From IMG/VR virus record IMGVR_UViG_3300022747_000001, positions 1 through 64,000 of that record: 64,000 nucleotides of DNA. One strand, given 5' to 3'. Under the pieces are notes generated by a model. That model was not told the origin of the DNA. It searched no databases and saw nothing but the letters and a program-made list of their open reading frames with translations. The stretch comes from a virus. The translations under genes and the position numbers were made by a program. Below, one piece after another: positions 329-61,011 of this stretch (the first letter of the stretch is position 1; every line of letters starts with the position of its first letter).

Positions 329-419
329 AGCTTCTTTCTTTGATACTGCAAAATCACAGTGAGATAACTATATCAAGAAAAGCGACGATTTTTGCAGGAC
401 ACCGCATCTGTCCTGGTGG

Positions 420-499
420 TTCGCCAATGGTTCGCCAATCAATCCCTAGGCACGCCTAGGCACCGATTCCTGAGCGTTCCTAGGCACCTTCCTAGGCAC
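420..499. repeat. iteron cluster: 2x TTCGCCAAT then 4x CCTAGGCAC
   Basis: ttcgccaat at 420-428 and 431-439. cctaggcac at 445-453, 455-463, 479-487 and 491-499. Intergenic, directly downstream of a terminator. Confidence 0.8.
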
Positions 500-506
500 G
501 AACCGG

Positions 507-535
507 ACAAACAAAAGGCGACTCGGAAGTCGCCT
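507..535 (-). terminator. Rho-independent terminator after gene 578-841
   Basis: Stem aggcgact (516-523) / agtcgcct (528-535), loop cgga, followed on the minus strand by TTTTGTTTG. Confidence 0.7.
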
Positions 536-577
536 GCACACACTTTGTCCGCGCCGTACCCCGACGCAGGTCTTCAG

Positions 578-841
578 TTACGCCTGAGTCATCCAACTCT
601 TGTCCAGCCGTACCTCAATCGGCGTCAGATCATCGGACGAAGCAATCACCAGCGCTTCCTGATCCAACTGATCGGCAATCCGAAGCAGCGATGACGCACA
701 CAACGCCATGAACCCCAACGAGACGCACAACGCCCAAGCGAACGCGAACCCAAATCCATAGTCATGCAGCGCGACAATGCAAAACGCCGACGCCAGCATG
801 TTCAGTATCAAAGCCAAGGTGGTGAGGTAAAAACGAATCAT
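578..841 (-). CDS. small membrane protein, 87 aa
   Basis: Two or three hydrophobic helices (LTTLALILNMLASAFCIVAL, FAFAWALCVSLGFMALCA). RBS CAGGAG 7 nt before the ATG. Confidence 0.55.
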   Translation of the reverse strand: MIRFYLTTLALILNMLASAFCIVALHDYGFGFAFAWALCVSLGFMALCASSLLRIADQLDQEALVIASSDDLTPIEVRLDKSWMTQA

Positions 842-860
842 GAAAGCTCCTGGTGGTGGT

Positions 861-882
861 TGACAGATGATTTACTGTAACC
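861..882 (-). promoter_or_regulatory. class-2 upstream box (GGTTACAGTAAATCATCTGTCA on minus)
   Basis: Matches the box found 25-45 nt upstream of five other start codons in the left 11 kb. Confidence 0.4.
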
Positions 883-1316
883 AGCAAATACAGGCGAAAA
901 GCTGTTTGGCCAGGGATTCTTATAGGGCACCTTATAGGAGCCGGCCTAGGCATTTCTAGGCGAATCTTCCAACGCGGCCACGGATTGAGTCTTATAGGAG
1001 CATCAAGCGGTGAAAGCGCCTTCTTATACATACAGGATGCTTGCCGTACCCCCGTTGCGTAGAGATTCAGGCAAAAGCTCCCCTACCCTCACGCCAAGGG
1101 ATAAAGGAGGTTTGAGATTCAGGCCCACAAGGGGGTTCTCCAACTTGCATGTGGCTGCCTAGGCCACTGCCCTCGTCCTTGGAGATGCGCTCGGACGCTG
1201 GATTCTTACGGAGTTGCACCGGCCTTGGCATGACGCCTTGGCTTACCAGTAGCTCTATTCTTCCCGACAGCCGAACTAGGCCTCATAGACTTCAGGCGGG
1301 GAGTGCCTTGGCGGCA

Positions 1317-1338
1317 AGTATAGCTCAGGGCTGACTTA
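1317..1338 (-). promoter_or_regulatory. promoter-like -10 TATACT with adjacent operator copy
   Basis: Minus strand reads TAAGTCAGCCCTGAGCTATACT. The architecture is nearly identical to the promoter at 59355-59376. Confidence 0.45.
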
Positions 1339-1855
1339 GTTTGCCTGGCGAAAATTTTCCCTATAAGGTTTCGCGCCAGAAAAATGAAAATGATCGAGGG
1401 AATACAAACGCCTCGTCCTTACCGTTTTACTTTTTCCTGTCTCTATCATTCCTAGTGTTCTTTCTATGCCTGTACCCATGAGTTTCATCCTCCCTAATGA
1501 TCTGATGCCTGTGAGTGTCGTCCGTGTCCGTGTTCGTCTCCGTTGTTCTTTCTTCTTTCTCCTAGCTGTTCCAGACTTGGTTTCTTCCCGTACTTGGATT
1601 CGACCGATTTAAACGCGTTTTGAGCGCTTTCCGTTTGTTCGTGTGTCAGCGGTGCTAAACCTTGATTGGCAGCGCTCTGGTGCGGTTCTGATGCGTTTCC
1701 CTGTGCTTGTTTTTAGTTATAGGTTTCTGATGTGTGAATCTCTTGGAAACCTTATACATTGGCAGTAAGTTTCTTATACATATTTTGGCCTCTTGGATTT
1801 GCTGTTTGTTGCGGATTTACAACAGTCTTTCCAAGGCGGATTTGAGGTGTTTAAT

Positions 1856-1876
1856 AACCCTACGGTGTGTAGGGTT
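1856..1876 (-). terminator. hairpin downstream of gene 1885-2301 (weak terminator)
   Basis: Stem aaccctac (1856-1863) / gtagggtt (1869-1876). The trailing sequence is A/T-rich but not a clean U-tract. Confidence 0.4.
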
Positions 1877-1881
1877 GTTCC

Positions 1882-1895
1882 TCATTACTGAGTGA
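1882..1895 (-). promoter_or_regulatory. operator-like motif copy (degenerate)
   Basis: Plus tcattactgagtga. Contains the TAA stop of gene 1885-2301. Confidence 0.35.
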
Positions 1896-3644: not shown

Positions 3645-3848
3645 TTAGTTCTCCTGTGCGTTAGTTACTGATGACTTATTGTCACAAGCGAGAGAAGGAT
3701 GCGCAATGCGTCCAATCACAAGCCCTGGATAAATCCCATGCGATTCAGCATGGTGGCGCTTCATGGCTTCGGTGATGAAGCCTGGATCGTTGACCTGCTC
3801 GTGCCAGGGACGGCCGGCACGCACGGCTTTCGGGTCACACATTCCCAT
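3645..3848 (-). CDS. hypothetical protein, 67 aa
   Basis: ORF track; abuts both neighbours. Confidence 0.45.
   Translation of the reverse strand: MGMCDPKAVRAGRPWHEQVNDPGFITEAMKRHHAESHGIYPGLVIGRIAHPSLACDNKSSVTNAQEN
3665..3678 (-). promoter_or_regulatory. operator-like motif copy
   Basis: Plus ttactgatgactta. Lies inside or next to the 3' end of a small gene. Confidence 0.35.
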
Positions 3849-4797: not shown

Positions 4798-4824
4798 CGA
4801 TAATGTATTGTCACGAATGACTTA
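4798..4824 (-). promoter_or_regulatory. class-2 upstream box plus operator copy
   Basis: Plus cgataatgtattgtcac (4798-4814) followed by tcacgaatgactta (4811-4824), 27 nt upstream of the start at 4771. Confidence 0.45.
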
Positions 4825-5753: not shown

Positions 5754-5777
5754 ACACGCCTCCTTCTTGGTTTGTTT

Positions 5778-5824
5778 CAGTGATTGAACTGTAAACGCTG
5801 AATTGTGGACTCACCAGTGACTGA
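5778..5824 (-). promoter_or_regulatory. class-2 upstream box (1.5 copies) plus operator copy
   Basis: Plus cagtgattgaactgtaaac (5778-5796), gctgaattgtggac (5797-5810) and tcaccagtgactga (5811-5824). Confidence 0.45.
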
Positions 5825-7222: not shown

Positions 7223-7247
7223 TTAGTGCTCCTCGCTGCTGTTGTTT

Positions 7248-7265
7248 CGATAACTGAATTGTCAC
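7248..7265 (-). promoter_or_regulatory. class-2 upstream box
   Basis: Plus cgataactgaattgtcac, 26 nt upstream of the start at 7222. Confidence 0.45.
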
Positions 7266-7269
7266 CACC

Positions 7270-7303
7270 GAGTATTGGACATGCAATACTCAGCGGTGAC
7301 TTA
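7270..7303 (-). promoter_or_regulatory. inverted repeat GAGTATTG-N6-CAATACTC plus operator copy
   Basis: The IR arms are 7270-7277 and 7284-7291. The operator tcagcggtgactta is at 7290-7303. Confidence 0.45.
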
Positions 7304-8006: not shown

Positions 8007-8035
8007 TGCATGGTTTCTCCTTACTGCTGTTGTTG

Positions 8036-8054
8036 CGATGATTGAACTGTAAAC
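8036..8054 (-). promoter_or_regulatory. class-2 upstream box
   Basis: Plus cgatgattgaactgtaaac, 30 nt upstream of the start at 8006. Confidence 0.45.
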
Positions 8055-8076: not shown

Positions 8077-8090
8077 TCACAGGTGACTTA
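8077..8090 (-). promoter_or_regulatory. operator-like motif copy
   Basis: Plus tcacaggtgactta. Perfect dyad GTCAC-AG-GTGAC. Its TAA is the stop of gene 8088-8867. The surrounding 16-mer is identical to the one at 10152-10167. Confidence 0.5.
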
Positions 8091-10153: not shown

Positions 10154-10167
10154 TCACAGGTGACTTA
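10154..10167 (-). promoter_or_regulatory. operator-like motif copy
   Basis: Plus tcacaggtgactta. Its TAA is the stop of gene 10165-10947. Confidence 0.5.
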
Positions 10168-10947: not shown

Positions 10948-11095
10948 GGAAAAACTCCTTGAGAAAATTAAGATGATGGAACGGCGTCGAAAAATTCGAC
11001 AAATGAAATGTAGTGCTCGGTTTCAGGACTTACAAGCGTTTTGCTTGGGTATGTGAATCTGTCCGGTTGCTCTGCATTTCTTTCGTTGCGTCTTT

Positions 11096-11113
11096 CGATA
11101 ATTGAATTGTGAC
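11096..11113 (-). promoter_or_regulatory. class-2 upstream box
   Basis: Plus cgataattgaattgtgac, about 150 nt upstream of the start at 10947. Confidence 0.4.
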
Positions 11114-13964: not shown

Positions 13965-13984
13965 TTGCTAATGACTGAAGTGTA
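13965..13984 (-). promoter_or_regulatory. -10 TACACT followed by operator variant
   Basis: Minus strand reads CTACACTTCAGTCATTAGCAA, 19 nt upstream of the start at 13946. Confidence 0.4.
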
Positions 13985-17150: not shown

Positions 17151-17174
17151 TCACTGCTGACTGATGCAATTTTA
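17151..17174 (-). promoter_or_regulatory. -10 TAAAAT followed by operator copy
   Basis: Minus strand reads TAAAATTGCATCAGTCAGCAGTGA, then RBS AAAGGAGG and the start at 17135. Confidence 0.45.
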
Positions 17175-18857: not shown

Positions 18858-18871
18858 TCAGTGATGACTTA
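18858..18871 (-). promoter_or_regulatory. operator-like motif copy
   Basis: Plus tcagtgatgactta. Its TAA is the stop of 18869-19393. The junction is only 25 nt and has no promoter. Confidence 0.5.
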
Positions 18872-19412: not shown

Positions 19413-19436
19413 TCATAAGCGACTGATTGCAGTGTA
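19413..19436 (-). promoter_or_regulatory. -10 TACACT followed by operator variant
   Basis: Minus strand reads CTACACTGCAATCAGTCGCTTATGA. Confidence 0.45.
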
Positions 19437-19657: not shown

Positions 19658-19915
19658 TCAGTAGTGACTGAAACCATAGTACGCCAAGATCGAGCTGAAA
19701 GTGTGAAATTTCGTCTCGCTCCAGTGCAAAAGACCGGCAGTGTAGATTCCGCACGACGCCAGCTCCACCGTGATGAGCGCCCTATCCTGCGACTGCATAC
19801 CGACCATCGCCCAGATGCCACCGCCGATCGCCCCGAAGACCAGATTGACCGGATAGACGTTGGCAGCGGTCAGCAGCATGCCGATCAGGTACATCACAGT
19901 GCCAGACCACTTCAT
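19658..19915 (-). CDS. 3-TM membrane protein, 85 aa
   Basis: Three hydrophobic helices; family not recognised. Confidence 0.55.
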   Translation of the reverse strand: MKWSGTVMYLIGMLLTAANVYPVNLVFGAIGGGIWAMVGMQSQDRALITVELASCGIYTAGLLHWSETKFHTFSSILAYYGFSHY

Positions 19916-21435: not shown

Positions 21436-21466
21436 AAGTCACGGGCTTTGCAGTCACCCGTGACTT
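21436..21466. promoter_or_regulatory. 10-bp palindrome built from two opposed operator half-sites
   Basis: aagtcacggg (21436-21445) and cccgtgactt (21457-21466). The inner site agtcacccgtgact (21452-21465) is a perfect AGTCA-N4-TGACT. Confidence 0.5.
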
Positions 21467-21471
21467 TGCCC

Positions 21472-23216: not shown

Positions 23217-23236
23217 TCATTGGTGATTGAAGTGTA
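23217..23236 (-). promoter_or_regulatory. -10 TACACT followed by operator variant
   Basis: Minus strand reads CTACACTTCAATCACCAATGA. Confidence 0.4.
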
Positions 23237-26131: not shown

Positions 26132-26155
26132 TCATTAGTGACTTATTGCAGTATA
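26132..26155 (-). promoter_or_regulatory. -10 TATACT followed by operator copy
   Basis: Minus strand reads TATACTGCAATAAGTCACTAATGA. Confidence 0.5.
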
Positions 26156-26287: not shown

Positions 26288-26372
26288 TGGTGCTCTAGGC
26301 GGGACTCGAACCCGCACGTCTTTCGACACCGGCACCTGAAGCCGGCGCGTCTACCAATTCCACCACCAGAGC
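26288..26372 (-). tRNA. tRNA-Leu (CAG), type II, CCA encoded
   Basis: Hand-folded cloverleaf. Anticodon loop TTCAGGT, long variable arm TGTCGAAAGACGT, T-arm GCGGG TTCGAGT CCCGC. Confidence 0.85.
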
Positions 26373-26375
26373 ATC

Positions 26376-26451
26376 TGGTGCCGCCTTGAGGAATCGAACC
26401 CCAGACCTTCTGCTTACAAGGCAGCTGCTCTACCAACTGAGCTAAGGCGGC
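26376..26451 (-). tRNA. tRNA-Thr (TGT), CCA encoded
   Basis: Acceptor GCCGCCT/AGGCGGC. Anticodon loop CTTGTAA. T-loop TTCGATT. Confidence 0.85.
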
Positions 26452-26682
26452 GATCTGTCGGGATGGTCGTGACCTTCAGGTGCTGGACTCCATCAAGAGG
26501 AGACGCTGACGCTGGTTAGTTCTTAGAACACCCCGACAAAACTTTGCATCGAGAAGTGGAAGCTCACATGAAGCAGTGGGTTTCCACCTACCGGAGTCAG
26601 ACTCCCTTCCTTTCGAAAGTGAGGTTGATCGGTAGCAACGGCGCTGACCCGTTGCACTTCCTCTTCTCGACACTAGAAAACA
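26452..26682 (-). ncRNA. candidate structured RNA inside the tRNA array (231 nt)
   Basis: No tRNA fold and no credible ORF. A 14-bp helix pairs 26549-26562 with 26657-26670 (one mismatch). Nested hairpins at 26593-26605 and 26635-26655. A second helix pairs 26457-26462 with 26532-26537. Confidence 0.35.
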
Positions 26683-26759
<77 letters not shown>

Positions 26760-26761
26760 AT

Positions 26762-26837: not shown

Positions 26838-26844
26838 ACGAAAC

Positions 26845-26941: not shown

Positions 26942-26985
26942 ATCTTATATAAGTTTTCGAGGGAAGTCAACTCAGTGCTGACTTA
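26942..26985 (-). promoter_or_regulatory. sigma70-type promoter of the tRNA operon with upstream operator copy
   Basis: -35 TTGACT (plus 26965-26970), 17-nt spacer, -10 TAAGAT (26942-26947). Operator tcagtgctgactta at 26972-26985. Confidence 0.6.
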
Positions 26986-26997
26986 CCCTGCAAAAAA

Positions 26998-29699: not shown

Positions 29700-29713
29700 T
29701 CAGTTGTGACTTA
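29700..29713 (-). promoter_or_regulatory. operator-like motif copy
   Basis: Plus tcagttgtgactta, between 29730-30293 and the RNR start. The minus strand has CTTATATGGT just upstream. Confidence 0.45.
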
Positions 29714-30317: not shown

Positions 30318-30338
30318 AGTATATTCACGGGTGACTTA
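30318..30338 (-). promoter_or_regulatory. operator copy immediately upstream of -10 TATACT
   Basis: Minus strand reads TAAGTCACCCGTGAATATACT. Confidence 0.5.
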
Positions 30339-32187: not shown

Positions 32188-32212
32188 TCATTACTGACTG
32201 ATTGGTAGTATA
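32188..32212 (-). promoter_or_regulatory. -10 TATACT followed by operator copy
   Basis: Minus strand reads TATACTACCAATCAGTCAGTAATGA. Confidence 0.5.
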
Positions 32213-35286: not shown

Positions 35287-35300
35287 TCAGTGGTGACTTA
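35287..35300 (-). promoter_or_regulatory. operator-like motif copy
   Basis: Plus tcagtggtgactta. Its TAA is the stop of 35298-35702. The junction is 22 nt and has no promoter. Confidence 0.5.
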
Positions 35301-38678: not shown

Positions 38679-38692
38679 TCATTGGTGACTTA
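38679..38692 (-). promoter_or_regulatory. operator-like motif copy
   Basis: Plus tcattggtgactta. Its TAA is the stop of 38690-39496. Confidence 0.5.
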
Positions 38693-39559: not shown

Positions 39560-39581
39560 ATTATAGTTCATCCGTGACTTA
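39560..39581 (-). promoter_or_regulatory. operator copy immediately upstream of -10 TATAAT
   Basis: Minus strand reads TAAGTCACGGATGAACTATAAT. Confidence 0.5.
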
Positions 39582-40548: not shown

Positions 40549-40562
40549 TCATTTGTGACTGA
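40549..40562 (-). promoter_or_regulatory. operator-like motif copy
   Basis: Plus tcatttgtgactga, just downstream of the dnaE stop. Confidence 0.45.
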
Positions 40563-44284: not shown

Positions 44285-44984
44285 TGTCACCACCGATCGC
44301 AGGAGTTGCAACGAACCCCTCTGAAGTCTCCTGTGCGATACCGAAGGCAACCAGCACCGGCAGGGCAATCCCCACATGCGCACTGGCGGTGCTCTTGTCC
44401 CACGGTGTCTTGGCACCCAGTCGCGACATGAACGCCTTCGTCAGAGACTGCTTTGTGACCGTGCCTTTGAGCAGTTCGTCACACACGACACCACAGTGAG
44501 AAAGGCGAGCTTCTGACGCGAACGGGTTGCGTCCCTCAAGCATGTCTTCGCGAATCTTTGCGATCAGTCCGCGCTTGCACCACGTCACCGCCAGCTCCTG
44601 AGACTTCTTGTTCAAGGTGCCGATGATGGCTTGGTCAGCTTCGGATACCTCGTGAACGGCCGGCTCCGCACGCACTTTGCGCTCAACCTGCGCGTCCGGC
44701 TTTTTCACCGAAGGCATGAACTTCATGAAGTTCGCTGCGGGCTTTTCGCTCGGTGCGGCAGACTCGATGGTGGCGGCGCGGGCGTTCTTGTGGCGAGCCA
44801 GCAGGTACTCCACATTGATCTGGTCGCGCAATTCGTTCAGCGTCTTGATACAAGCCTGCGCACACCCATCAAAAGTCGGACAGCTTCGGCAGATGTCCGA
44901 GTCCTGGCTATACACACTGGGCGATGCGTAGCAGCCTGGCGCCTCACGCGGCGTGTCGATGAATGTGGCAGTGTTCATAATCAA
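44277..44984 (-). CDS. hypothetical protein, 235 aa, N-terminal Cys cluster
   Basis: CYASPSVYSQDSDICRSCPTFDGCAQAC. Translationally coupled to the sigma factor gene. Confidence 0.6.
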   Translation of the reverse strand: MIMNTATFIDTPREAPGCYASPSVYSQDSDICRSCPTFDGCAQACIKTLNELRDQINVEYLLARHKNARAATIESAAPSEKPAANFMKFMPSVKKPDAQVERKVRAEPAVHEVSEADQAIIGTLNKKSQELAVTWCKRGLIAKIREDMLEGRNPFASEARLSHCGVVCDELLKGTVTKQSLTKAFMSRLGAKTPWDKSTASAHVGIALPVLVAFGIAQETSEGFVATPAIGGDNV

Positions 44985-45637
44985 ACTCCGATGTATTGCT
45001 TGGCGTCGGCATAACGCAGACGCTCGATTTCTTTCAAGGCACGATCCACCTCGGGCTGCTTCACATCGGAGATCATCTGAATGAAATTGGCGATGTAGCG
45101 TGGCGAGACGTTGACCATGCAGCGACTGTTGTAGCCAAGTGAGCGACCGAAACGGGCGTTCGCTTCAGCTTTCCTGATTTCGGTCATCACTTGGCGTGGC
45201 GGTTGCAGCACCCAAGCCAGAATCAGCGAGGCCAGCGGCGTGAGGTTTTCATTGATGTGATTCAGGAACTCGGTGACGCGGTATTGCGCCTCTGGGGTGG
45301 TGTGATCCACCATCAGCACGTCTTCCAGCGAGTTCTCGCCATCGTCCGTGTGATTCAGTTCCTGAATGCTCACCACGCCATGCTCGAGGCGCTCCTCGAT
45401 CATCTTCTGCGCCCAAGTGTTCAGCTTGTTGTAGGCCGCCATGAAGTAGTACGTGCTGAATTTGAAGCCTTTGGTGGCGTCAAACCCCTTGTACGCCTTC
45501 AGGAACACGACCGACATTTCCTGGAAAACGTCGTCGTATTCCACACCGACCCCCGCCTTGACAAGACGAAGGTGGCCCTTCCTCGACACTGCGTGAACAA
45601 GACCCACGTTGGCCTTGTAGTAGTCGGCTGCGCTCAT
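44981..45637 (-). CDS. phage sigma-70-family factor, 218 aa
   Basis: Region 2-like DDVFQEMSVVFLKAYKGFDATKGFKFSTYYFMAAYNKLNTW. C-terminal HTH-like region. Confidence 0.7.
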   Translation of the reverse strand: MSAADYYKANVGLVHAVSRKGHLRLVKAGVGVEYDDVFQEMSVVFLKAYKGFDATKGFKFSTYYFMAAYNKLNTWAQKMIEERLEHGVVSIQELNHTDDGENSLEDVLMVDHTTPEAQYRVTEFLNHINENLTPLASLILAWVLQPPRQVMTEIRKAEANARFGRSLGYNSRCMVNVSPRYIANFIQMISDVKQPEVDRALKEIERLRYADAKQYIGV

Positions 45638-45639: not shown

Positions 45640-46839
45640 TTACGAACCGAAGATGCGTTGAGCCAAACCGTCCACCACTTCGCGGTCGATCTTGGACAGC
45701 TTGTTGATGAACGACAGCGTGATGCCTTGACGGAACGAGCCGCGCATCACACCAATCTTGGCCGAGTAGATCAGCGTGCGTGGCGAGATCACATCACTGA
45801 TCTTGGCGCCGTCATACGCATCACGCACCAGCGTGGCGAACTCGACCAGCTTGTCGGCGTCCTCTTTGGTCAGACCCACTTGGTTCTGAAGAATTTGGCT
45901 CTCGGCGGGCTTCTTCATGTACTTCTTGTGGATGACCATGCCGAAGCGGTCGTAGTTGGCAGAGTTCTGCAAGTTGGTGCCCTGATACAGACCCGTCTCG
46001 TCACCGCTGCCGTTGGTGTTGCCCGTTGCGCAGAAGCGGAAATTCGCGTGCGGCTTGATGATGCGGTTCGCTGCGTCAGCCTCTTTAATCATCAGTGACT
46101 TACCTTCGAGGACAGCCTGATAGACCGAGAGCACAGAAGGCAGCGCGAAGTCGTATTCGTCAGCCACGTACATCCAGCCGTTTTGCATGGCCAGCGGCAA
46201 CGGGCCAAGCTCGAACACCGTCTCACCACCCTTGACCGTCCACTGACCGACGATGTGGCTCTCTTCGGTGTTCACCGTGTGCTGGACACGAATCATCGGA
46301 CGGTTGGTACGGGCGGCGATCTGCTCGAACAGTTCGGTCTTACCGGCACCCTTGTGGCCCCAGACGTAGCATGGGTAGCGCAGCTCGAGGGCGAGGATGA
46401 CGTTCTTCAACTCGTCGATGTCATAGACGTAGTTGTCCGAGACGGTTGGCACGAAATCACCGAAGTCGGTGTTGGCCAGCACGGTGATTGGGATGGGGTC
46501 GCCCTTCGCGTTCATGGCCGACTTGACCTTGCCCAAGTTGAACACCTCATTGAGCGCCTTCTTCAAGATGCCGCCCTTTGGCACGAGTGCGCTCACATTG
46601 GCGGCGACGTTCTCGGTGCCGGCCATTGCCACCTTGGTGGTGTCATCGGCAGCGGGGGCAGCTTTGGCAGCGTTGCGCTCGGCGATTTTCTTTTGAGCCA
46701 GCTCCGAGAGCAGTGGCGCATCGGGGAAGCGCTCCTTGTACTGCTCGATCGTGACCTCTGGATGATCCTTTTGCAAGTGCAGCTGGATGGCGTGTGCTTG
46801 CGCACCGCAAATGGAACAAGTGATTTTTCCGTCTGACAT
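45640..46839 (-). CDS. MoxR/CobS-like AAA+ ATPase, 399 aa
   Basis: N-terminal Zn-like CSICGAQAHAIQLHLQKDH. Walker A GHKGAGKTE. Walker B YVADEYD. Confidence 0.8.
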   Translation of the reverse strand: MSDGKITCSICGAQAHAIQLHLQKDHPEVTIEQYKERFPDAPLLSELAQKKIAERNAAKAAPAADDTTKVAMAGTENVAANVSALVPKGGILKKALNEVFNLGKVKSAMNAKGDPIPITVLANTDFGDFVPTVSDNYVYDIDELKNVILALELRYPCYVWGHKGAGKTELFEQIAARTNRPMIRVQHTVNTEESHIVGQWTVKGGETVFELGPLPLAMQNGWMYVADEYDFALPSVLSVYQAVLEGKSLMIKEADAANRIIKPHANFRFCATGNTNGSGDETGLYQGTNLQNSANYDRFGMVIHKKYMKKPAESQILQNQVGLTKEDADKLVEFATLVRDAYDGAKISDVISPRTLIYSAKIGVMRGSFRQGITLSFINKLSKIDREVVDGLAQRIFGS

Positions 46840-46927
46840 TGAGACACTCCTTTATTCGTTGATATTCAACGGGTTGCTAAAAAATTTCGACATTCAAATG
46901 ATAACCAGCAATCGCAGGGCTAACAAG

Positions 46928-46941
46928 TCATTGATGACTTA
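46928..46941 (-). promoter_or_regulatory. operator-like motif copy
   Basis: Plus tcattgatgactta, between the vWA and AAA+ genes. Confidence 0.45.
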
Positions 46942-46960
46942 ACCCTGTGATCTGTCCTGC

Positions 46961-49054
46961 TTACGGGTTCATCAGCAGGTGGCGCAGCTCCTTGATGACT
47001 GCGGCGGGCAGCTCCTCAACCGAGTGCAGCACGATGTTCTTGGGGTAGAAGGACTTCACCGCATCGGACTCGATGCCAATGCCGACCACTTTGACGCCGG
47101 CAGCCGACACGTTGCGCACCACCTCCTTCAGATGACGCTCCAGATCGCCACGCGAACCGGCAGCAGCCGGATAGCCGTCACTGAGCACGATCAGAATCTT
47201 GGACTCCTCGCGACGTGCCATGAGGCGACGCGCAGCGTTCTCCACCGACTCACCATCCACGTTGGAGCGCAAGATGTTGGTGTGCGGCAGCCAACCGAAG
47301 CGCTCCTTGACATTGGCGGTCAACCGCTCGTCGTAGCCCTTCAGGATGGGCATGTAGATGCCTTCGGCGCGTGAGAAGCGAATGCCGGTCTTGGACTGCT
47401 GCTCGTACATCTCCTTTTGCGCTCCGCCGATGTCCTTCGTCGTAAAGCCGATCACCTCATTCTTGATGTTCAGCCGCTCCAGCACGGATGACAGCGCATA
47501 CGCTGCCTGGCACGCGGTGTGAATCTTGGAGCCGCCCATTGAGCCGGAGCAGTCCACCACCAGCTCGATCGCCACGTCCTTGCTGGTCGATTCGTGCTTG
47601 CGGGAGAAGACACGCGCATCACCGACCGCCAGTCGAGACAGGTTGGCCGCGTGCAGTCGGCCGGACTTGTGCCCGTGTGAGCGCGTTGCCAGCGATCGGG
47701 CGCTGATGGCGCGTTCAAGGTCTTTCTGAAGCGGCGCGACCATGTGGTCAACCTTGTCGGCCATGCTCTTGGTCATGCGGGCTTCATAGCCAGTGCCGAT
47801 CGGCAGCTTCTCCACCACGTCATAGTCTTTACTGAAAGGCAGGTAGGTGGCGTTGGTGGCCGATGCCAGACTCTGCTCGGAGATGACGCGCGACATGGCT
47901 TCATCAAACGCGTTGGTGCCATCCTTGTCCATCGCCTCCCAGATCGGTGCGGAGCTTTCCAGATCGGACTCCTCGTCACCCGCATCGGCATCGGTGGGGT
48001 CAGCGCCCTCGCCGATCTCGCCATCGTCATCGCTTTCTTGCGGTGCGGCCTCGATCGTGTCTTCGCCGTCAGCAGGTTCCTCTTCGGGTGCGGGGTCAGG
48101 GTCAGACGGGGTGGGTTCCTCCTCGTCTTTTTCGTCGTCGTCTTTTTCCTCCTCAGAGGGGGCTTTTTCTTCTTCTTTTTCCTCCTCCTTCTCAGGCTTG
48201 CTGGGCTTGCCGGCTGACGGGGCGGGCTTTTCTTCCTCCTCCTCGTCGTCCTTTTCTTCCTCTTTGGACTTGCTCTTGCCGGCACCTGACGCCTTTTCCG
48301 CCTTGCTTGGTGCGCTGCTCTTGCTGGCTTTGCCAGCGCCCTTACCTGCCGCACCGCCCGAGCTGGACTTCGGACTCTTCTCGCTACCGCTGCCGCCGCC
48401 CTCGCCGTCTTCGCTCAGACGTTTACCGATCTCTTCGGCCAGCGCCAAGCAGTCTTCGGTGCAGGTGGCCGCTTCGATCTTCGGCTGCAAGTCTTTGATG
48501 CGTTCGTAGATGGGGGCAACGGTCTTCCACTTGTCGTCGGCGTTCATGAACTCTTTGAACACCTGCTGGCCCGACATGGCGCGAATCATCGGCACGATCA
48601 GCGTTTGAATGACGCCTTGCGCATCGCCCGCACGCGCTTTTTCTTCAAGGCGGGGCACCACGAACTTGTCCAGATAGAACTTGCCGGTGTTTGCCAGGTT
48701 GTAGGCTGAACCGCTGAACCGCTTGGCCATCTCCTTCTCGATGCGCGGGTCTTCCAGCGCGTTGAGCATGAAGCCGATCTGACGACCCTGGCGATTGGCT
48801 TTACCCATCAGCGGGAAGTTGGTGAAAAGGATGTGCGCAACCTCGTGGTCAAGAAAGCCTTGAATGGCGTTGATGAGGTCTTCGGTGGCGTTGTCGGGCA
48901 GATACGGCAGATTGACCAGAACCGGCACACCGTTGTGGTCAGCGCGAACGTAGGCTTGAACGCCCTGCTGCGTGACCTTGATACCTTTGCCAGAGAGCAG
49001 TTGGGTGATCTTCACCACTGACTCACGCAAAATAAAGACGCGATCGTTTTTCAC
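46961..49054 (-). CDS. CobT-like vWA-domain protein, 697 aa, GTG start
   Basis: GTG start with RBS TAAGGAGAAAC. Central 150-aa acidic low-complexity block. C-terminal vWA domain with MIDAS VVDCSGSMGG. Confidence 0.8.
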   Translation of the reverse strand: MKNDRVFILRESVVKITQLLSGKGIKVTQQGVQAYVRADHNGVPVLVNLPYLPDNATEDLINAIQGFLDHEVAHILFTNFPLMGKANRQGRQIGFMLNALEDPRIEKEMAKRFSGSAYNLANTGKFYLDKFVVPRLEEKARAGDAQGVIQTLIVPMIRAMSGQQVFKEFMNADDKWKTVAPIYERIKDLQPKIEAATCTEDCLALAEEIGKRLSEDGEGGGSGSEKSPKSSSGGAAGKGAGKASKSSAPSKAEKASGAGKSKSKEEEKDDEEEEEKPAPSAGKPSKPEKEEEKEEEKAPSEEEKDDDEKDEEEPTPSDPDPAPEEEPADGEDTIEAAPQESDDDGEIGEGADPTDADAGDEESDLESSAPIWEAMDKDGTNAFDEAMSRVISEQSLASATNATYLPFSKDYDVVEKLPIGTGYEARMTKSMADKVDHMVAPLQKDLERAISARSLATRSHGHKSGRLHAANLSRLAVGDARVFSRKHESTSKDVAIELVVDCSGSMGGSKIHTACQAAYALSSVLERLNIKNEVIGFTTKDIGGAQKEMYEQQSKTGIRFSRAEGIYMPILKGYDERLTANVKERFGWLPHTNILRSNVDGESVENAARRLMARREESKILIVLSDGYPAAAGSRGDLERHLKEVVRNVSAAGVKVVGIGIESDAVKSFYPKNIVLHSVEELPAAVIKELRHLLMNP

Positions 49055-49070: not shown

Positions 49071-49096
49071 TCACAAATGACTGATAACGTAATGTA
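49071..49096 (-). promoter_or_regulatory. -10 TACATT followed by operator copy
   Basis: Minus strand reads TTGTTC-N17-TACATTACGTTATCAGTCATTTGTGA. Confidence 0.5.
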
Positions 49097-49166: not shown

Positions 49167-49358
49167 TTACAGAGGAAGGTAGGCCCCTCCTCCTGTCAGG
49201 TCGCTGACCAGCATGAGCAGTCCCATGCTGTCATGGCGGCCCGTGTGAATCAGGGCAGCACCAATGTCGAGCGTCTGTTGTACTTCAAAGTCTTCAAGCA
49301 GGCCTGTCAATTCTTCCTGCGTCGTACGTACTAGGTCTTTTGCTAGCTTGGACAACAT
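49167..49358 (-). CDS. hypothetical protein, 63 aa, divergent from the repressor gene
   Basis: ORF track. It sits in the Cro-like position, but no HTH is recognised. Confidence 0.45.
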   Translation of the reverse strand: MLSKLAKDLVRTTQEELTGLLEDFEVQQTLDIGAALIHTGRHDSMGLLMLVSDLTGGGAYLPL

Positions 49359-49531
49359 TGTCTTCTCTTTCGTGTAGTATATAACTCAGTAACGACATAT
49401 AACGCACCCCCGCGTTTGTTCCTCCTTTCCGAGTGGGAATCCCTGTCTTATTCACTCAGTAGCGACCAAACCCCGCGCTACACTGCAACCAGTAACGCTT
49501 TTTCATTAAAACGACTTTTTTTGGAGCTTTC
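49359..49531. promoter_or_regulatory. divergent promoter/operator region of the immunity switch
   Basis: Leftward -10 TATACT (plus 49376-49381) and rightward -10 TACACT (49479-49484). Operator copies tcagtaacgac (49386-49396) and tcagtagcgac (49456-49466). Confidence 0.55.
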
Positions 49532-49993
49532 ATGCCCACCGCTGGTTCAAAGTCAAAAGCCATCCGAGTCACGGACACCAACAAGCGAATTACGACCGTG
49601 GCAGAGTACGTTAGTCAACAGATTTCACTCGTCGGAAAAGATCAGGTAACGATCGCCAGAGAGGTCGGATTTAACAAACCGAACGTCATTACGATGATTA
49701 AACAGGGCAAAACCAAGGTGCCGCTGGAGCGTATCGGCAGCATGGCCAAAGCCTTGAGCGTGGACCCTGTTTTCTTCTTTAAGCTCTGTATGAACGAGTA
49801 TTTGCCCGACCTGATGCCGGCCATCACCGCGATCACCGGACAGCCGATCATCACGGAGAACGAGATGGAATTCATCACCGTCATCCGATCGTCAAAAGTG
49901 GCCAATCCGAAGCTGCGAACTGTGGAAGAAAAACGACAGTTGAAGCAGTTTGTGGACACCCTGAAGGGCGATAACGAGGCGCGTGAGGACTGA
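49532..49993 (+). CDS. XRE-family HTH repressor (CI-like), 153 aa
   Basis: HTH segment QVTIAREVGFNKPNVITMIKQGKTKVP. RBS GGAG. One of only two plus-strand genes. Confidence 0.7.
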   Translation: MPTAGSKSKAIRVTDTNKRITTVAEYVSQQISLVGKDQVTIAREVGFNKPNVITMIKQGKTKVPLERIGSMAKALSVDPVFFFKLCMNEYLPDLMPAITAITGQPIITENEMEFITVIRSSKVANPKLRTVEEKRQLKQFVDTLKGDNEARED

Positions 49994-50066: not shown

Positions 50067-50128
50067 TCAGTAGTGACTTGTCATAACGAATACTATCGGA
50101 GTATTCTTCGCCTGTCACTACTGACTGA
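50067..50128. promoter_or_regulatory. two operator copies flanking the inverted repeat GAATACT-N5-AGTATTC
   Basis: Operators tcagtagtgacttg (50067-50080) and tcactactgactga (50115-50128). The IR arms are 50088-50094 and 50100-50106. Confidence 0.5.
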
Positions 50129-50460
50129 TGTTTTTTATGCACAGCCTTGATCTCGATGAATGCGCCGCCTACCTCAAGGTGGATCGCACAACGGTGCTGA
50201 AGCTGGCCATGCAAGGCGTTTTGCCTGGCGCCAAGATTGGCCGAGCCTGGGTCTTCCCTCAGAACGAGCTGGCCGAATTCCTCAGTAATGAGGTAAAGCG
50301 GCAGCAGGCGGAGCGCCGTAACACCCAGCTGACCACCGACCAGCTCGAGGCGCATGTGGCCAAGTCCCGCAGTGCGCCCGACCCCCTGACCAAGCGCCGT
50401 CGCGGTCAGCGCCTGCCCTCATTCCTTCAGACGCTACCAGAGCCGCTGGGCGAGGTTTGA
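50128..50460 (+). CDS. xis: excisionase-type HTH protein (HTH_17/MerR-like), 110 aa
   Basis: LDLDECAAYLKVDRTTVLKLAMQGVLPGAKIGRAWVF is the typical Xis/AlpA-like HTH. The start may instead be the Met at 50137. Confidence 0.6.
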   Translation: MFFMHSLDLDECAAYLKVDRTTVLKLAMQGVLPGAKIGRAWVFPQNELAEFLSNEVKRQQAERRNTQLTTDQLEAHVAKSRSAPDPLTKRRRGQRLPSFLQTLPEPLGEV

Positions 50461-51579
50461 CGCACGCAGGTTGGCGTAGCGCTTGAGCATCTCCAGGCGC
50501 TTGTGCCCCGTGATCTTTGCGATCTCCACATCGGACAGATTGGTGCGCTCAAACAGACGCGAGGTGGCTTCGTGACGCAGGTCATGAAAGGTGAAGTCGG
50601 CACAGCCTGCTGCGGCAAACACCCGACCGAACTGTGCCGACAGGTTGCGCGTGACGACCTTGCGCTGCAACGCCTCCTCTTTGGGGGTGGCGGCCAGGCC
50701 CGTGTACCACGGAAAGATCGGCTGCGTGGCGCTTAGATTCTGAGTCAGCGCCTCGAACAGCTTGATGGCCACACTGGACAGCGGCACCTGACGCTTGTCG
50801 CCGTTCTTGGTCTTGTCCAGAAATACCGTGCGCCGCTCCAGATCCACTTGCCCTCGGGTCAGCGTGTAGATTTCAGCCATGCGCATGGCTGTTTCCAGTG
50901 CGACCTCGAACAAGGCTTGCAGGTGCGTCTTGTGTTCGAGCTTGAGCGCACGCTCCCTGCCCTGCGGTTTGGCGCCTTGCAGGATGTGACGAATCGCCGC
51001 CTCCTCGCCGTCTTCGATCCTGCGGTCGCGCTCGGTGTCTTGCGGCACCTGAACGTCCAGTGCCACCAGCTTTTGCCGATCCGTCTCGTTATAGGTGCCG
51101 TAGCCTTTTGGCAACAGGCGCAGTGGGTTGCGAATCAGGGTGGACTTGCCGGTGCGCATCAACCAGTCCAGGCAGCGGGCCAGGGCGCCGACGTGTTTTC
51201 GGATGGTTGATGGCGCCAGGTGGTGCGTGTGCTTCATCGAGCCGACCCAGCGTTCGACCCAGTTGTAGTCCACGTCCTTGAGTTGGGTGGCGCCGATGCG
51301 CACGTAGCTGACCATCAAATTGGAATGGTCGCCGCCCTTCACGTTGACCGCGATCAGGTAGCCTTTGATGGCTTGCGCGATCGTGGTGATCCGCTCCTCG
51401 GTGGTTTCAACTTCTTCAGGGATGATGCCGGCGCGAAGCTGCTTGCGGGCCTTTTGCTCCCACTCGTGCGCTTCATCGTAGGTGGGGAAATTTCGGGTGA
51501 TCGTGCCGCTGGCGCGGTACTTCAGCAGCATCTTGTGCTTGGCGCGACCTTCCCAGTATTTACCTTTGGGAACTGGCAT
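50434..51579 (-). CDS. int: tyrosine integrase, 381 aa
   Basis: C-terminal catalytic region FTFHDLRHEATSRL...GHKRLEMLKRYANL (R, HxxR, Y). Confidence 0.9.
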   Translation of the reverse strand: MPVPKGKYWEGRAKHKMLLKYRASGTITRNFPTYDEAHEWEQKARKQLRAGIIPEEVETTEERITTIAQAIKGYLIAVNVKGGDHSNLMVSYVRIGATQLKDVDYNWVERWVGSMKHTHHLAPSTIRKHVGALARCLDWLMRTGKSTLIRNPLRLLPKGYGTYNETDRQKLVALDVQVPQDTERDRRIEDGEEAAIRHILQGAKPQGRERALKLEHKTHLQALFEVALETAMRMAEIYTLTRGQVDLERRTVFLDKTKNGDKRQVPLSSVAIKLFEALTQNLSATQPIFPWYTGLAATPKEEALQRKVVTRNLSAQFGRVFAAAGCADFTFHDLRHEATSRLFERTNLSDVEIAKITGHKRLEMLKRYANLRASNLAQRLW

Positions 51580-51798: not shown

Positions 51799-51872
51799 TG
51801 GAGGCGCGGGGCGGAGTCGAACCGCCCTGCAAGGATTTGCAATCCTCTGCCTAACCGATCGGCCACCGCGCC
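51799..51872 (-). tRNA. tRNA-Cys (GCA), CCA encoded
   Basis: Acceptor GGCGCGG/CCGCGCC. Anticodon loop TTGCAAA. Discriminator U73, as expected for Cys. T-loop TTCGACT. Confidence 0.85.
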
Positions 51873-52976: not shown

Positions 52977-53157
52977 CGGGGGCCTCTTTCGGTTTGAGCT
53001 TTTGCGTGACCACTTCGAGGACGGCCACCATGTCAAAGATCGGCACCTCCTCGTTGTGACGGTTCATCACGCGCACGATGCCGCCCAACCCAGAGGGCTG
53101 GACGGTGTGCGTCCAGGGGAACGTCCCCTGGATAGCCTTGAATTGTGCGTCTGTCAT
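52963..53157 (-). CDS. hypothetical protein, 64 aa
   Basis: Trimmed to MTDAQFK. The start lies inside an operator copy. No SD sequence. Confidence 0.35.
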   Translation of the reverse strand: MTDAQFKAIQGTFPWTHTVQPSGLGGIVRVMNRHNEEVPIFDMVAVLEVVTQKLKPKEAPDAQS

Positions 53158-53167
53158 TCGTGACTTA
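53154..53167 (-). promoter_or_regulatory. operator-like motif copy
   Basis: Plus tcattcgtgactta. Its TAA is the stop of the ligase gene. Confidence 0.5.
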
Positions 53168-55895: not shown

Positions 55896-55937
55896 TCACT
55901 GATGACTGCATTATACCGTGCAGCTATTGGGTTTCAA
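55896..55937 (-). promoter_or_regulatory. sigma70-type promoter with operator at +1
   Basis: -35 TTGAAA (plus 55932-55937), 16-nt spacer, -10 TATAAT (55910-55915), then GCAGTCATCAGTGA (55896-55909). Confidence 0.6.
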
Positions 55938-59023: not shown

Positions 59024-59025
59024 AG

Positions 59026-59307
59026 TCAGTCCGCAGTCTTGTCAGCGGGGTTCGTCCAGAATGTCTCGATGGCGTGCTTGAACACCACGTAGACCTGATA
59101 GGTGCCGTCGTCAAAGTCCGTGCGCAGGGAGATCGTGTACTTGTCTGAGTGCTTGAGCGTGCCCTTCATCACTTCGCCCGAAAGCAAGGTCACATTGATG
59201 ATGGCGCCAGCTTGCTCGAGGGCCTTGAGGAATGCTTCATGGCCTTTTGGTGCGGCAGGTTTCTTCACGAATGGCTTGCGGGGTGTGAAGTGGGGTTGGT
59301 CAGACAT
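59026..59307 (-). CDS. Hfq-like Sm-fold protein, 93 aa
   Basis: Start set at MSDQPHF (RBS AAGGAG). FLKALEQAGAIINVTLLSGEVMKGTLKHSDKYTISL...YVVFKHAIETF parallels Hfq Sm1/Sm2, including KHAI. Confidence 0.6.
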   Translation of the reverse strand: MSDQPHFTPRKPFVKKPAAPKGHEAFLKALEQAGAIINVTLLSGEVMKGTLKHSDKYTISLRTDFDDGTYQVYVVFKHAIETFWTNPADKTAD

Positions 59308-59354
59308 AGATTCTCCTTGTAATGTCGATTGAAAATTTGAAACCGAAGACTTGC

Positions 59355-59376
59355 AGTATAGCTCACGGCTGACTGA
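59355..59376 (-). promoter_or_regulatory. operator copy immediately upstream of -10 TATACT
   Basis: Minus strand reads ATCAGTCAGCCGTGAGCTATACT. The TGA inside it is the stop of 59363-60115. Confidence 0.5.
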
Positions 59377-60115
59377 TTTCTGCACCACATTCGTCGATTG
59401 CCGCTTGAACTACCCGATGATCGAACGCCTGAAGCGCCCGCTCGATGCGAATCGCGTCTTCTATATAGAGCGCAGCGTGTAGACCATATTGGGGGTGCCG
59501 GCGCATGCCAAGCTGGGCGACGATGAAGTCTTCATAGGCGATCTGGTCGATGTGCCCGAAGAAGTTGCGCGACTTGTAGCGCTCGTCCTTGCAGAACTGA
59601 AGCCGTGCGGCGCACTCCTCTTCCCAGGCCATCATCACGTCCGTAATCATGTCTTGGTTGGCACCCAGGTGACTTGGGCGCGGGGGTTGCAACCAGCCGT
59701 TCAGAACGTGCCAGTCCATTGCGTGCCGTAGAAAGAAGTCGTAGCGCATCCCCAGCGAGTCGATCAGCTGCCGTAGGCGCCAAAAAGCCAGCTTCTCTTT
59801 GGATTGAAGCACGTCCAAGCCCTTGAATCCGCGCATGAATTTGCCGCTGCGGTCTTTCATGACCGACACGCAGTCCTGATAAGCGCGGTTGTAGCACTGC
59901 GCCAGGTAGTAGGTCGATTTGGTGGGGTGCATGCGCCGGTAGTCAAACCACTTGGTGCGCATGAGAGCCGCTTCCTTCTTGAGCAGCGAATCGGGAATAT
60001 GTTGAATCGCCAGCAGCTCCGCGTGCAGCAGGTTCAGGTCGTGCCCGTAGAAGTACCCCAGCCAGTCTGCGGGATGGGAAATTGGGGCCGGTGGCGTAAT
60101 CATTAAATCAGTCAT
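59363..60115 (-). CDS. hypothetical protein, 250 aa
   Basis: ORF track. Confidence 0.6.
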   Translation of the reverse strand: MTDLMITPPAPISHPADWLGYFYGHDLNLLHAELLAIQHIPDSLLKKEAALMRTKWFDYRRMHPTKSTYYLAQCYNRAYQDCVSVMKDRSGKFMRGFKGLDVLQSKEKLAFWRLRQLIDSLGMRYDFFLRHAMDWHVLNGWLQPPRPSHLGANQDMITDVMMAWEEECAARLQFCKDERYKSRNFFGHIDQIAYEDFIVAQLGMRRHPQYGLHAALYIEDAIRIERALQAFDHRVVQAAIDECGAEISQP

Positions 60116-60129
60116 TAGTGACCAGTATA
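60112..60129 (-). promoter_or_regulatory. -10 TATACT followed by operator variant
   Basis: Minus strand reads TATACTGGTCACTAATGA. Confidence 0.45.
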
Positions 60130-60139
60130 GATATAGAAG

Positions 60140-60167
60140 ATACGCGGGGCGAAAAATCCCCGCGTAT
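60140..60167 (-). terminator. hairpin after phoH (terminator-like)
   Basis: Stem atacgcgggg / ccccgcgtat, 8-nt loop. The downstream U-tract is weak. Confidence 0.5.
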
Positions 60168-60181
60168 TCCCCGCATTCAGA

Positions 60182-60949
60182 TCATTCGGTGCCGTCGTCG
60201 GTTTCGTAGGCTTCCACGATCTCTTGCACCAAGCCGGAGCGCACTACGTCTTCCTTGGTAAAGCGCACGCACTTGACGGACGGAATGTGCGACACCCGTT
60301 GGATGGCGTCCTGCAAGCCCGAAGTCCCGTGAATGTCTTTCTGACGGATGTCGCCGTTCACCACCACCTTGCAGTCATGGCCAATGCGGGTCAGGAACAG
60401 TTTCATCTGGTTCGGTGTGGTGTTCTGCGCCTCGTCCAAGATCACGAACGCCCGTTTGAAGGTGCGACCGCGCATGTACGCCAGCGGTGCTGCTTCGATC
60501 TTGCCGGTCTTGAGCAGGTACTCCACGAAGCTCTTGCCCAGGCGCTCGTTCAGCACGTCACGGAATGGTTGCAGGTAGGGGTCGAACTTCTCCTCGATCT
60601 CGCCTGGCAGAAAGCCCAGCGACTCCCCTGCTTCGACTGCGGGTCGGGTCACGATGATTCGGTCAATGACGCCTTCAGACAGGGCTTGCGCTGCCAATGC
60701 CGCGCACAACCAAGTCTTGCCCGTACCCGCTGGGCCGGTGGCAAAGACGAGTTCGAAGGTCTTGATGGCGCTAATGTAGCGATGCTGCGAGTCGTTCAGC
60801 GGCTCGATGGGGGAGCGATCGACTTTTTCGGTCTTTCGTGGCTCAAAGAAGTCGTCCTGAGTATGGAGGTTGTCACGTTCGATGAACGCACCCCCCTTTT
60901 TCGATTTGCGCTTGGCTGGAGCGGGAGGGGTGGTGCGGTGACGTGCCAT
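60182..60949 (-). CDS. phoH: PhoH-like ATPase, 255 aa
   Basis: Walker A GPAGTGKTW. VILDEAQN. Typical PhoH length and layout. Confidence 0.9.
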   Translation of the reverse strand: MARHRTTPPAPAKRKSKKGGAFIERDNLHTQDDFFEPRKTEKVDRSPIEPLNDSQHRYISAIKTFELVFATGPAGTGKTWLCAALAAQALSEGVIDRIIVTRPAVEAGESLGFLPGEIEEKFDPYLQPFRDVLNERLGKSFVEYLLKTGKIEAAPLAYMRGRTFKRAFVILDEAQNTTPNQMKLFLTRIGHDCKVVVNGDIRQKDIHGTSGLQDAIQRVSHIPSVKCVRFTKEDVVRSGLVQEIVEAYETDDGTE

Positions 60950-60997
60950 CAGGTTGCTGCTTTCAGAGAGTAAATCCTGGCCTCGAATATACCTCAG

Positions 60998-61011
60998 TCA
61001 TTCCTGACTTA
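60998..61011 (-). promoter_or_regulatory. operator-like motif copy
   Basis: Plus tcattcctgactta. The minus strand has CTTATATGGT upstream and GGTATATT downstream. Confidence 0.45.

Follow-up and report, generated by a model that had tools for sequence, protein, structure and literature searches.

L5-type mycobacteriophages of cluster A carry more than 20 dispersed stoperators, which lie at promoters and in short intra-operon gaps and whose orientation is tied to transcription (PMC9283540). Their repressor (gp71; TipsytheTRex) is a monomer with a helix-turn-helix (HTH) and a 'Stoperator' domain, and it binds a 13-bp asymmetric site (PMC9283540). In phage P1, one repressor, C1, controls many operons through 22 asymmetric operators over ~94 kb, and next to the gene for C1 lies that of a small antirepressor, Coi (PMC8546580). 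We analyzed a 64,000-nucleotide stretch of viral DNA (positions 1 to 64,000 of IMG/VR record IMGVR_UViG_3300022747_000001), hereafter the window, in which a short motif recurs at promoters and gene junctions. The observation itself was confirmed, and the motif is probably a repressor operator network; the candidate repressor is a 153-amino-acid (153-aa) protein encoded in the window. The initial annotation of this DNA had known of no such network described for a proteobacterial phage of this type. This claim of novelty was too strong, because the dispersed P1 C1 network is a proteobacterial precedent.

Abundance, placement and shape of the motif

Genes in the window run nearly all on the minus strand. 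Dinucleotide shuffles predicted 0.03 copies of the exact word TCANNNNTGACTTA, and 17 were found, all on the plus strand; on the minus (transcribed) strand, the word is TAAGTCA-N4-TGA. Strict sites were defined as T[AC]AGTCA-N4-TGA. In the window, 25 of them were found in the minus-strand sense and two reversed, with 0.11 expected, and the orientation bias was significant (binomial p = 6e-6). An iterated weight matrix with a cut-off of score >12 returned 36 sites, in agreement with the at least 33 copies initially claimed. The proposed word TAAGTCA held for the 17 exact copies, but in half of all copies the sequence was TCAGTCA or a degenerate form. No description of the motif or its regulon was found in the literature searched.

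Sixteen of the 25 strict sites were fully intergenic. In six others the TAA was the stop codon of the upstream gene, in two the TGA stop of a gene lay at the site end, and one (at 46089) was truly intragenic. As the coding share of the window is ~86%, this restriction was highly significant (binomial p = 4e-16), and only 0.015 strict copies were expected in intergenic-like composition. The claim that the motif sits almost only in spacers was thus borne out, and the enrichment held against shuffled and intergenic composition alike.

The full site is an imperfect 18-bp dyad, T(A/C)AGTCA-N4-TGACT(T/G)A. Its upstream (left) half was near-invariant, and the right half was kept mainly as TGA(c). The inner dyad AGTCA-N4-TGACT, proposed at the outset as the underlying form, was perfect in four window copies (0.07 expected) and recurs as palindromes in more distant phages (below). 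Because the site is an imperfect dyad, weight-matrix matches on the opposite strand were the same sites 4 nt out of register.

The orientation lock also held in relatives. Outside the immunity region it had been described as absolute; we found one exception, a reversed operator at 60108..60121 (plus strand), which lies 2 nt after a TATACT -10 box and directly ahead of the ATG at 60103. A strict lock over 64 kb is what a strand-specific DNA-processing signal (a nick site, a recombination hotspot, or a replication or priming signal) would give, and strand-specific nick consensus sequences occur in several phages, e.g. T5 and phage tf. However, such sites need not avoid coding DNA and would not be phased to -10 boxes. 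In addition, the reversed copies cluster at the divergent repressor gene, indicating that orientation follows transcription and not the DNA strand. A processing signal is therefore barely credible. For an operator, the lock may come from a polar roadblock, from a downstream half that shares bases with other signals while the upstream half doubles as the TAA stop, or from both.

Registers of the sites relative to promoters and gene junctions

To place the sites relative to promoters, 114 unique strict sites were pooled from the window and 16 relatives. Sigma-70-type -10 hexamers were found at three offsets only: 6-14 nt upstream, +15/+16 and +38. These fixed registers indicated a DNA-level function relative to RNA polymerase, and two of the three lie upstream of the transcription start. 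Spacing does not fit a -35 or an extended -10 element, and the motif as such an element was ruled out. Window sites named below are on the minus strand unless stated otherwise.

In class a, the -10 box begins 6-14 nt upstream, and the site covers the transcription start and usually ends ~4 nt before the Shine-Dalgarno sequence. TCAGTCA was found in 24 of 27 class a sites, whereas TAAGTCA was found in ~80% of the sites of the other classes. The TCAGTCA preference fits a C(-1)A(+1) start context and confirms that the sites are truly in register with the promoter. The CobT promoter (TACATT) carries such a site at 49071..49084, 4 nt before the Shine-Dalgarno sequence, and it is conserved in all relatives. 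Other class a operators are at 55896..55909 (GCAGTCATCAGTGA, directly after TATAAT, with TTGAAA as -35), 32188..32201 (after TATACT), 26132..26145 (TAAGTCACTAATGA, after TATACT), 19413..19426 (TCAGTCGCTTATGA, after TACACT) and 17151..17164 (after TAAAAT). Two are degenerate, at 23217..23230 (TCAATCACCAATGA) and 13965..13978 (TCAGTCATTAGCAA), both after TACACT.

Class b sites have the -10 box at +15/+16 and fill the -35/-10 spacer, with their centre near -19. The box is TATACT at +16 for 59363..59376, where TGA is also the upstream gene's stop codon, and for 1325..1338, within a long non-coding region; it is TATAAT at +16 for 39568..39581 and TATACT at +15 for 30325..30338. The site at 29700..29713, upstream of the class II ribonucleotide reductase gene, has a weak -10 box (TAGACT), and an intergenic operator at 4811..4824 is class b-like with TACATT at +17.

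In class c, the -10 box is at +38 and TTGnnn directly follows the TGA, so that the right half overlaps the -35 box and the dyad centre is at -41.5. The site at 46928..46941 is directly followed by a TTGTTA -35 box, with TATCAT at +38. The others are at 40549..40562 (TAACAT at +38, just past the DnaE stop codon), at 26972..26985, which abuts the TTGACT-17-TAAGAT promoter of a tRNA cluster, and at 21454..21467 (degenerate, AAAGTCACGGGTGA, TAGAAT at +38).

A fourth class has no phased -10 box; either the upstream gene ends on the TAA of the site, or the following gene's ATG falls inside N4-TGA. At 53154..53167, TAA is the ligase stop codon and the next ATG lies within the site. TAA is likewise a stop codon at 38679..38692 (a UUCG hairpin follows), 35287..35300 (11 nt to the SbcD start), 18858..18871 (14 nt to the next start codon), 10154..10167 (followed by a GC-rich hairpin) and 8077..8090, which is possibly class c (TACAGT at +39). 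Intergenic operators without a phased -10 box are at 7290..7303 and 5811..5824 (TCAGTCACTGGTGA). The remaining sites are at 60998..61011 (TAAGTCAGGAATGA, near-palindromic, intergenic, upstream of PhoH), 19658..19671 (TGA is the upstream gene's stop codon), 3665..3678 (TAAGTCATCAGTAA, start codon 20 nt on), 1882..1895 (degenerate, TCACTCAGTAATGA, at a gene end) and 49012..49025 (weaker, TGAGTCAGTGGTGA, score 15, within the CobT 5' end). All coordinates listed initially under three contexts were recovered, and two needed correction: the site near 60112 is the reversed one, and the one near 1885 is present but degenerate, with the gene's TGA stop at its 3' end and no upstream TAA stop.

Two promoter-less sites were compared across genomes (relatives' loci are given by our L-numbers). 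The ligase junction site was kept at the orthologous junction in five other genomes (L002, L005, L008, L009, L020), and its N4 bases varied. The intragenic site of the CobS-like AAA gene, at 46089..46102, covers the codons GGT-AAG-TCA-CTG-(A/G)TG-A. GGT and AAG were invariant in 15 genomes, and TCA was used in 14/14 genomes that keep the serine; the site was lost in L013, in which Ser is replaced by Pro. In the same 15 genomes, neighbouring four-/six-fold degenerate codons used 2-4 synonyms each, and nearby serine codons were never TCA. Conservation at both places indicated selection on the nucleotide sequence without a promoter present. A block to read-through at junctions is plausible, and orthologous junction sites, synonymous-site conservation in CobS and the locked orientation are consistent with it.

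The motif could instead be a promoter element for a phage-specific factor, and a candidate factor is present. A 187-aa protein (44981-45544, minus strand) between CobS and DnaE matches a PHROG sigma-factor family at its N-terminus, and gp045 of Rhizobium phage RHEph10, at the same position, is annotated as a sigma factor (sigma-70 region 2 protein). However, the motif stands in three registers to ordinary -10 boxes, some copies have no -10 box at all, and it is palindromic in relatives. Pseudomonas phage nickie has a positional counterpart of like size between cobS and dnaE but no motif. It is thus very unlikely that the motif serves this sigma-like protein or another phage-specific factor. 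It is possible that phages of this family have a sigma factor of their own for late genes.

Folding of the transcripts bore on another reading, in which the motif acts in RNA as a leader or intercistronic element for a translational repressor, an RNase or an RNA chaperone, with a logic like that of T4 RegA/RegB. Many sites contain a start codon or precede a Shine-Dalgarno sequence by 0-15 nt, class a transcripts would start with the motif, and reading of the motif in mRNA would account for the strand lock. Excess folding was found in class c only (mean z -2.2; 59% of sites below -2). The operators of this class occupy the apex of a longer hairpin, at 46915-46947 and 26960-27000 in the window and near 7150-7450 in the relatives L006 and L013-L016. 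At the CobT-CobS boundary, the outer stem around the motif was 67% paired, compared with 28-44% in slid controls. Its covariation score was 0.156 versus 0.081 in shuffles, and 0/500 shuffles scored as high. GGA...TCC was invariant in this stem among relatives, with compensatory and sense-strand G.U pairs farther out.

The other observations argued against an RNA element. In classes b and c, the phased -10 box is downstream of the site, which hence lies upstream of that promoter's start. No structure excess was detected in the folding test for class a, class b or the promoter-less sites, and the inner stem of most window copies is just 3-4 bp. No Rfam family overlapped any motif site. Sites on the other strand are also present around repressor genes, and a sister clade has perfect DNA palindromes fused to -10 boxes. 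For the motif as a whole, an RNA-level function is improbable. The class c hairpin is not a canonical terminator, because no U-tract follows it. Class c looks like a hairpin-operator-promoter unit at operon boundaries, in which the hairpin, joined to the following promoter, may function in termination, processing or stability.

The class c position raised the question of sign. A centre at -41.5 is the classical class II activator position, e.g. that of lambda CI at PRM. The same XRE protein could then be a dual regulator that activates from -41.5 (class c) and perhaps from the spacer (class b), represses at +1 (class a), and times the lytic programme instead of, or besides, silencing the prophage. 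The class c site overlaps only the TTG of the -35 box, which is the geometry of lambda CI at OR2/PRM, and class b promoters have near-consensus -10 boxes with weak and variably placed -35 boxes. Structural relatives of the protein include controller C-proteins of restriction-modification systems and CI-type repressors, and members of both can activate as well as repress. However, class c promoters have a fair TTGnnn -35 box, a TATCAT-type -10 box and 17-bp spacing, so they need no activator. Class c genes are replication genes, expected to be off in a lysogen, and junction and intragenic sites have no part in activation. Dual regulation is thus unlikely, though less so than an RNA element. Repression rather than activation is the sign of regulation that we infer from these sequence features.

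The candidate repressor and the immunity region

The 153-aa protein is encoded at 49532..49993 (plus strand). It matched PHROG transcriptional regulator families and had 125 homologues, several of them with PF01381. A Pfam scan at E <= 0.01 gave no match for it. The AlphaFold 2 model (predicted local distance difference test score, pLDDT, 84) showed a five-helix HTH followed by three helices, with no peptidase domain predicted. In Foldseek, residues 23-90 superposed on 434 Cro (TM 0.81; root-mean-square deviation 1.7 Å); 434 and P22 c2 repressors, C-proteins and DdrO were also matched. Taken together, fold and profile searches of the PDB with the protein returned 434 Cro/CI, P22 c2, C-proteins, DdrO, Stl and Rco. 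No mycobacteriophage repressor was among the matches listed from Foldseek against the PDB and the profile search of PDB sequences. Its initial assignment to the XRE family is thus supported by PHROG, the homologues and the predicted fold, though not by the Pfam scan of the protein itself.

The recognition helix KPNVITMIKQGKTK was near-invariant in 57 homologues. It matches the invariant AGTCA core of the sites, and we counted this as a link between protein and site. Around the repressor gene and the promoter of xis, an excisionase-like gene (50137..50460, plus strand; Pfam HTH_17, PHROG excisionase), there are four to five sites. One, at 49452..49465 (plus strand, TCACTCAGTAGCGA), lies over the -35 region of the repressor promoter. 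The xis promoter is bracketed by a site at 50067..50080, which overlaps its TTGTCA -35 box, and one at 50115..50128 over the xis start. A degenerate, class b-like site at 49386..49399 (TATGTCGTTACTGA) lies at the promoter of a divergent gene for a 63-aa protein (49167..49358, minus strand). Half-sites thus flank the repressor gene in both orientations, as had been noted from the letters alone. The immunity regions of relatives have the same layout, including weakened left half-sites at the divergent promoter. Homologues in unrelated mobile elements (L026, L029, L033) have 1-3 AGTCA-type sites at their own genes, and in L029 the start codon falls within AGTCA-ATGC-TGACT.

The 63-aa protein is acidic and non-HTH, and the versions in relatives are 60-65 aa with an LDLG..L.H...G...LV motif. 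It had no PHROG match, and none in the Pfam scan at the same threshold. A CI/Cro pair was considered and rejected: the product of the divergent small gene is acidic and not an HTH protein, and no Cro-like HTH partner gene was found. By analogy with P1 Coi, the 63-aa protein might be an antirepressor, which is speculative.

Taken together, it is probable that the motif is the operator of the 153-aa XRE-family immunity repressor, which would act by promoter occlusion, junction roadblock and autoregulation. The initial suggestion of one repressor at many dispersed promoters gained comparative support from the registers, the immunity-region sites, co-occurrence and clade-specific operators; binding is inferred from these. 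The repressor probably binds the dyad as a dimer. The downstream half is looser wherever it shares bases with a -10 or -35 box, a Shine-Dalgarno sequence or a start codon, and the near-invariant half faces oncoming transcription. In a lysogen, the repressor would occupy ~36 sites of the 64-kb early/replication region and more beyond it. At promoters, bound repressor would exclude or trap host sigma-70 RNA polymerase from one of the three registers. At promoter-less junctions and the CobS site, it would be a polar roadblock to read-through. The sites at its own gene would serve autoregulation and keep the divergent small gene and xis repressed.

Several points weigh against this assignment. The pairing of protein and site rests on adjacency, co-occurrence and fold, and the co-occurrence sample is small and phylogenetically structured. 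One family member, L141, has a homologue and yet no AGTCA-type site in 21 kb with the patterns used. A symmetric dimer alone does not explain a strand-locked asymmetric site, and the asymmetry might merely reflect a downstream half that overlaps other signals. The class c centre at -41.5 and the poor class b -35 boxes leave activation at some promoters possible. Finally, the class c hairpin may leave room for a limited RNA-level role, as a pure DNA-operator model has no explanation for it.

Relatives, genome context and possible evolution of the network

The window encodes DnaE with a C-terminal uracil-DNA-glycosylase domain, class II ribonucleotide reductase, CobT, a CobS-like protein, SbcCD, RecA, a 5'-3' exonuclease, an ATP-dependent DNA ligase, an RNA ligase, DnaB, primase, PhoH and guanylate kinase. 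It is likely the early and replication part of a ~106-kb genome. In DnaE (DNA polymerase III alpha; 40566-44018), the uracil-DNA-glycosylase-superfamily domain is at residues 1002-1101, and the RHEph10 annotation gives the same.

In a search for near-identical phages, only tRNA and thymidylate-synthase fragments matched, and no close relative was found among deposited phages. Gene order was shared with RHEph10, nickie, Stenotrophomonas phage ANB28 and SSU5-like phage-plasmids, with 35-43% DnaE identity. A 106,418-bp metagenomic contig encodes a protein identical to the candidate repressor. The family of the window phage also includes many IMG/VR contigs of 105-113 kb and a 112,962-bp contig from the assembly of a Massilia isolate. 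These contigs point to Burkholderiales as likely hosts and to a genome of ~106 kb. The phage appears to be temperate, to judge from its integrase and excisionase genes and from the family member that is a 113-kb contig of a Massilia isolate.

The motif and the repressor were followed through these relatives. Scans with CobT and DnaB queries reached close relatives only. The dispersed motif was present in the family members most similar to the window phage, and motif and repressor homologue co-occurred in the loci examined. In L044, a 99% identical phage that extends ~8 kb beyond position 64000, further operator copies were found upstream of the window, at L044 positions 1265, 6004, 6055, 7888 and 8012. 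One operator in L044 (1-10000) is just ahead of a tail-fibre-like gene, and the same region contains 2OG-Fe(II) oxygenase, radical SAM and tryptophan-halogenase-like genes.

In a sister clade, the repressor is 34-45% identical with the helix KPNMLSMIRQGHSK, and the operator is a perfect palindrome, ATAGTCA-N4-TGACTAT, which frequently merges with the -10 box as TGACTATAAT. Between the two clades, both the outer operator bases and the recognition helices differ. RHEph10 gp041 is 37% identical to the 153-aa protein, with the helix QSNMVTMIKKGDAK, and RHEph10 has five perfect palindromes of type TCAGTCAATATTGACTGA. In nickie and ANB28, no repressor homologue was detectable, and no motif was found in 50 kb of syntenic DNA.

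The Klebsiella SSU5-like phage-plasmid pJN2-26 (L025) has a repressor homologue, 29% identical, at the same place between integrase and CobT, and lacks the AGTCA motif. The homologue gene is flanked by another palindrome, GTAAGTACTTAC / GTAAAGTCTTAC (30500-30560), with two copies only in 50 kb. pJN2-26 was set aside as evidence on the window.

The tyrosine integrase gene (50434..51579, minus strand; Pfam Phage_integrase, E = 1e-23) is adjoined by tRNA-Cys (51799-51872). The window's tRNA-Cys may mark the attP region, and RHEph10 has a tRNA-Cys too. The other five tRNAs (Leu, Thr, Pro, Asn, Met) form a cluster at 26288-26920, and its 230-nt gap (26452-26682) had no Rfam match. The repressor and the small divergent gene are retained in several close relatives whose fetched region shows no integrase or excisionase (L001-L011 vs L012, L013, L015-L017, L027). 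Some family members may persist as phage-plasmids like the related SSU5 group.

Two further repeats were observed in the window. The non-coding stretches 329-577 and 842-1884 contain an iteron-like repeat, TGCCTAGG, four times at 445-498 with extra copies at 945 and 1156, and three CTATAAG copies at 919-997. These stretches could represent an origin, a partition site or a packaging region close to where the early arm ends. A second repeat, ACARTTCARTYATCGMAACAAC (minus strand), lies in the leaders of four genes (5771-5792, 7241-7262, 8029-8050, 11089-11110), with 0 expected by chance. Each copy is downstream of an operator or in a long spacer (4-11 kb region).

The network was compared with the described systems. 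The likeness to L5 stoperators, drawn in the initial annotation, stood for the sites: there are more than 20 (here ~36 in 64 kb), at promoters and junctions (at least six with a TAA stop), oriented with transcription, and the repressor gene is in the same genome. It did not extend to the protein or the shape of the site. Here the protein is 434-Cro/CI-like and XRE-type, and its helical C-terminal domain is not the 'Stoperator' domain; the site is an 18-bp dyad that has decayed, and the host is proteobacterial. Judged by its PDB search matches and its dyad site, the 153-aa protein is not of the L5 gp71 family. A block to elongation was shown for L5 and is plausible here.

P1, with its C1, Coi and Lxc proteins, is likewise a large temperate proteobacterial phage with dispersed operators. 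The site distribution here fits that pattern, with control by a single repressor as the presumed cause, and the conserved 63-aa acidic gene stands beside the repressor gene as Coi does (speculatively its counterpart). To our knowledge, C1 is not an XRE protein, and its operator, a 17-bp sequence (ATTGCTCTAATAAATTT), is not a dyad. No homology between the 153-aa protein and C1 was detected, though no search aimed at it was made; PHROG and fold placed the 153-aa protein among XRE regulators. P1 operators are, as far as we know, promoter-associated, and neither sites at promoter-less junctions nor a strict strand lock is a described feature of theirs.

Lambdoid, 434 and P22 systems share with the window the HTH fold, dyads of 14-18 bp, divergent immunity promoters with graded operators and the -41.5 position, as at OR2 for PRM. 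Unlike them, with ~6 operators in two clusters, the window has ~36 that are dispersed and strand-locked, and the repressor model has no LexA-like peptidase domain. The phiC31 repressor binds conserved inverted repeats (CIRs), which have many intergenic copies in the early region of that temperate phage. The CIRs are likewise a repeated palindromic repressor site; the host is actinobacterial and the repressor is of another family. The best sequence match among solved structures was Rco of Bacillus plasmid pLS20 (PDB 8bny; E = 1e-3, marginal, HTH only). Rco combines an XRE HTH with a C-terminal oligomerisation domain, and it represses through DNA looping at a single promoter region (PMC9986798), in contrast to the dispersed sites here.

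A possible, still doubtful, account of these differences is that this Burkholderiales phage clade (~105-113 kb) independently evolved a polar, stoperator-type silencing from a dimeric 434-like repressor. Few symmetric operators, as in RHEph10 and largely in the sister clade, would have grown to ~1 site per 1.8 kb, with the strong half facing the polymerase, roadblocks at junctions and in coding DNA, and hairpin-operator-promoter units at operon boundaries. If one 434-type repressor does control a 106-kb genome by dozens of polar sites, dispersed silencing of the stoperator or P1 type would have arisen repeatedly with unrelated proteins and would not be a mycobacteriophage peculiarity. The handful of palindromes in RHEph10, the promoter-bound palindromes of the sister clade and the ~36 asymmetric sites per 64 kb of this clade would be a natural series for network evolution. 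The short operator, the small repressor and possibly the polar roadblock are possible tools. For uncultured and unstudied large temperate phages related to Nickievirus, RHEph10 and SSU5 phage-plasmids, the promoters, registers and junction sites given here are a directly testable regulon map.

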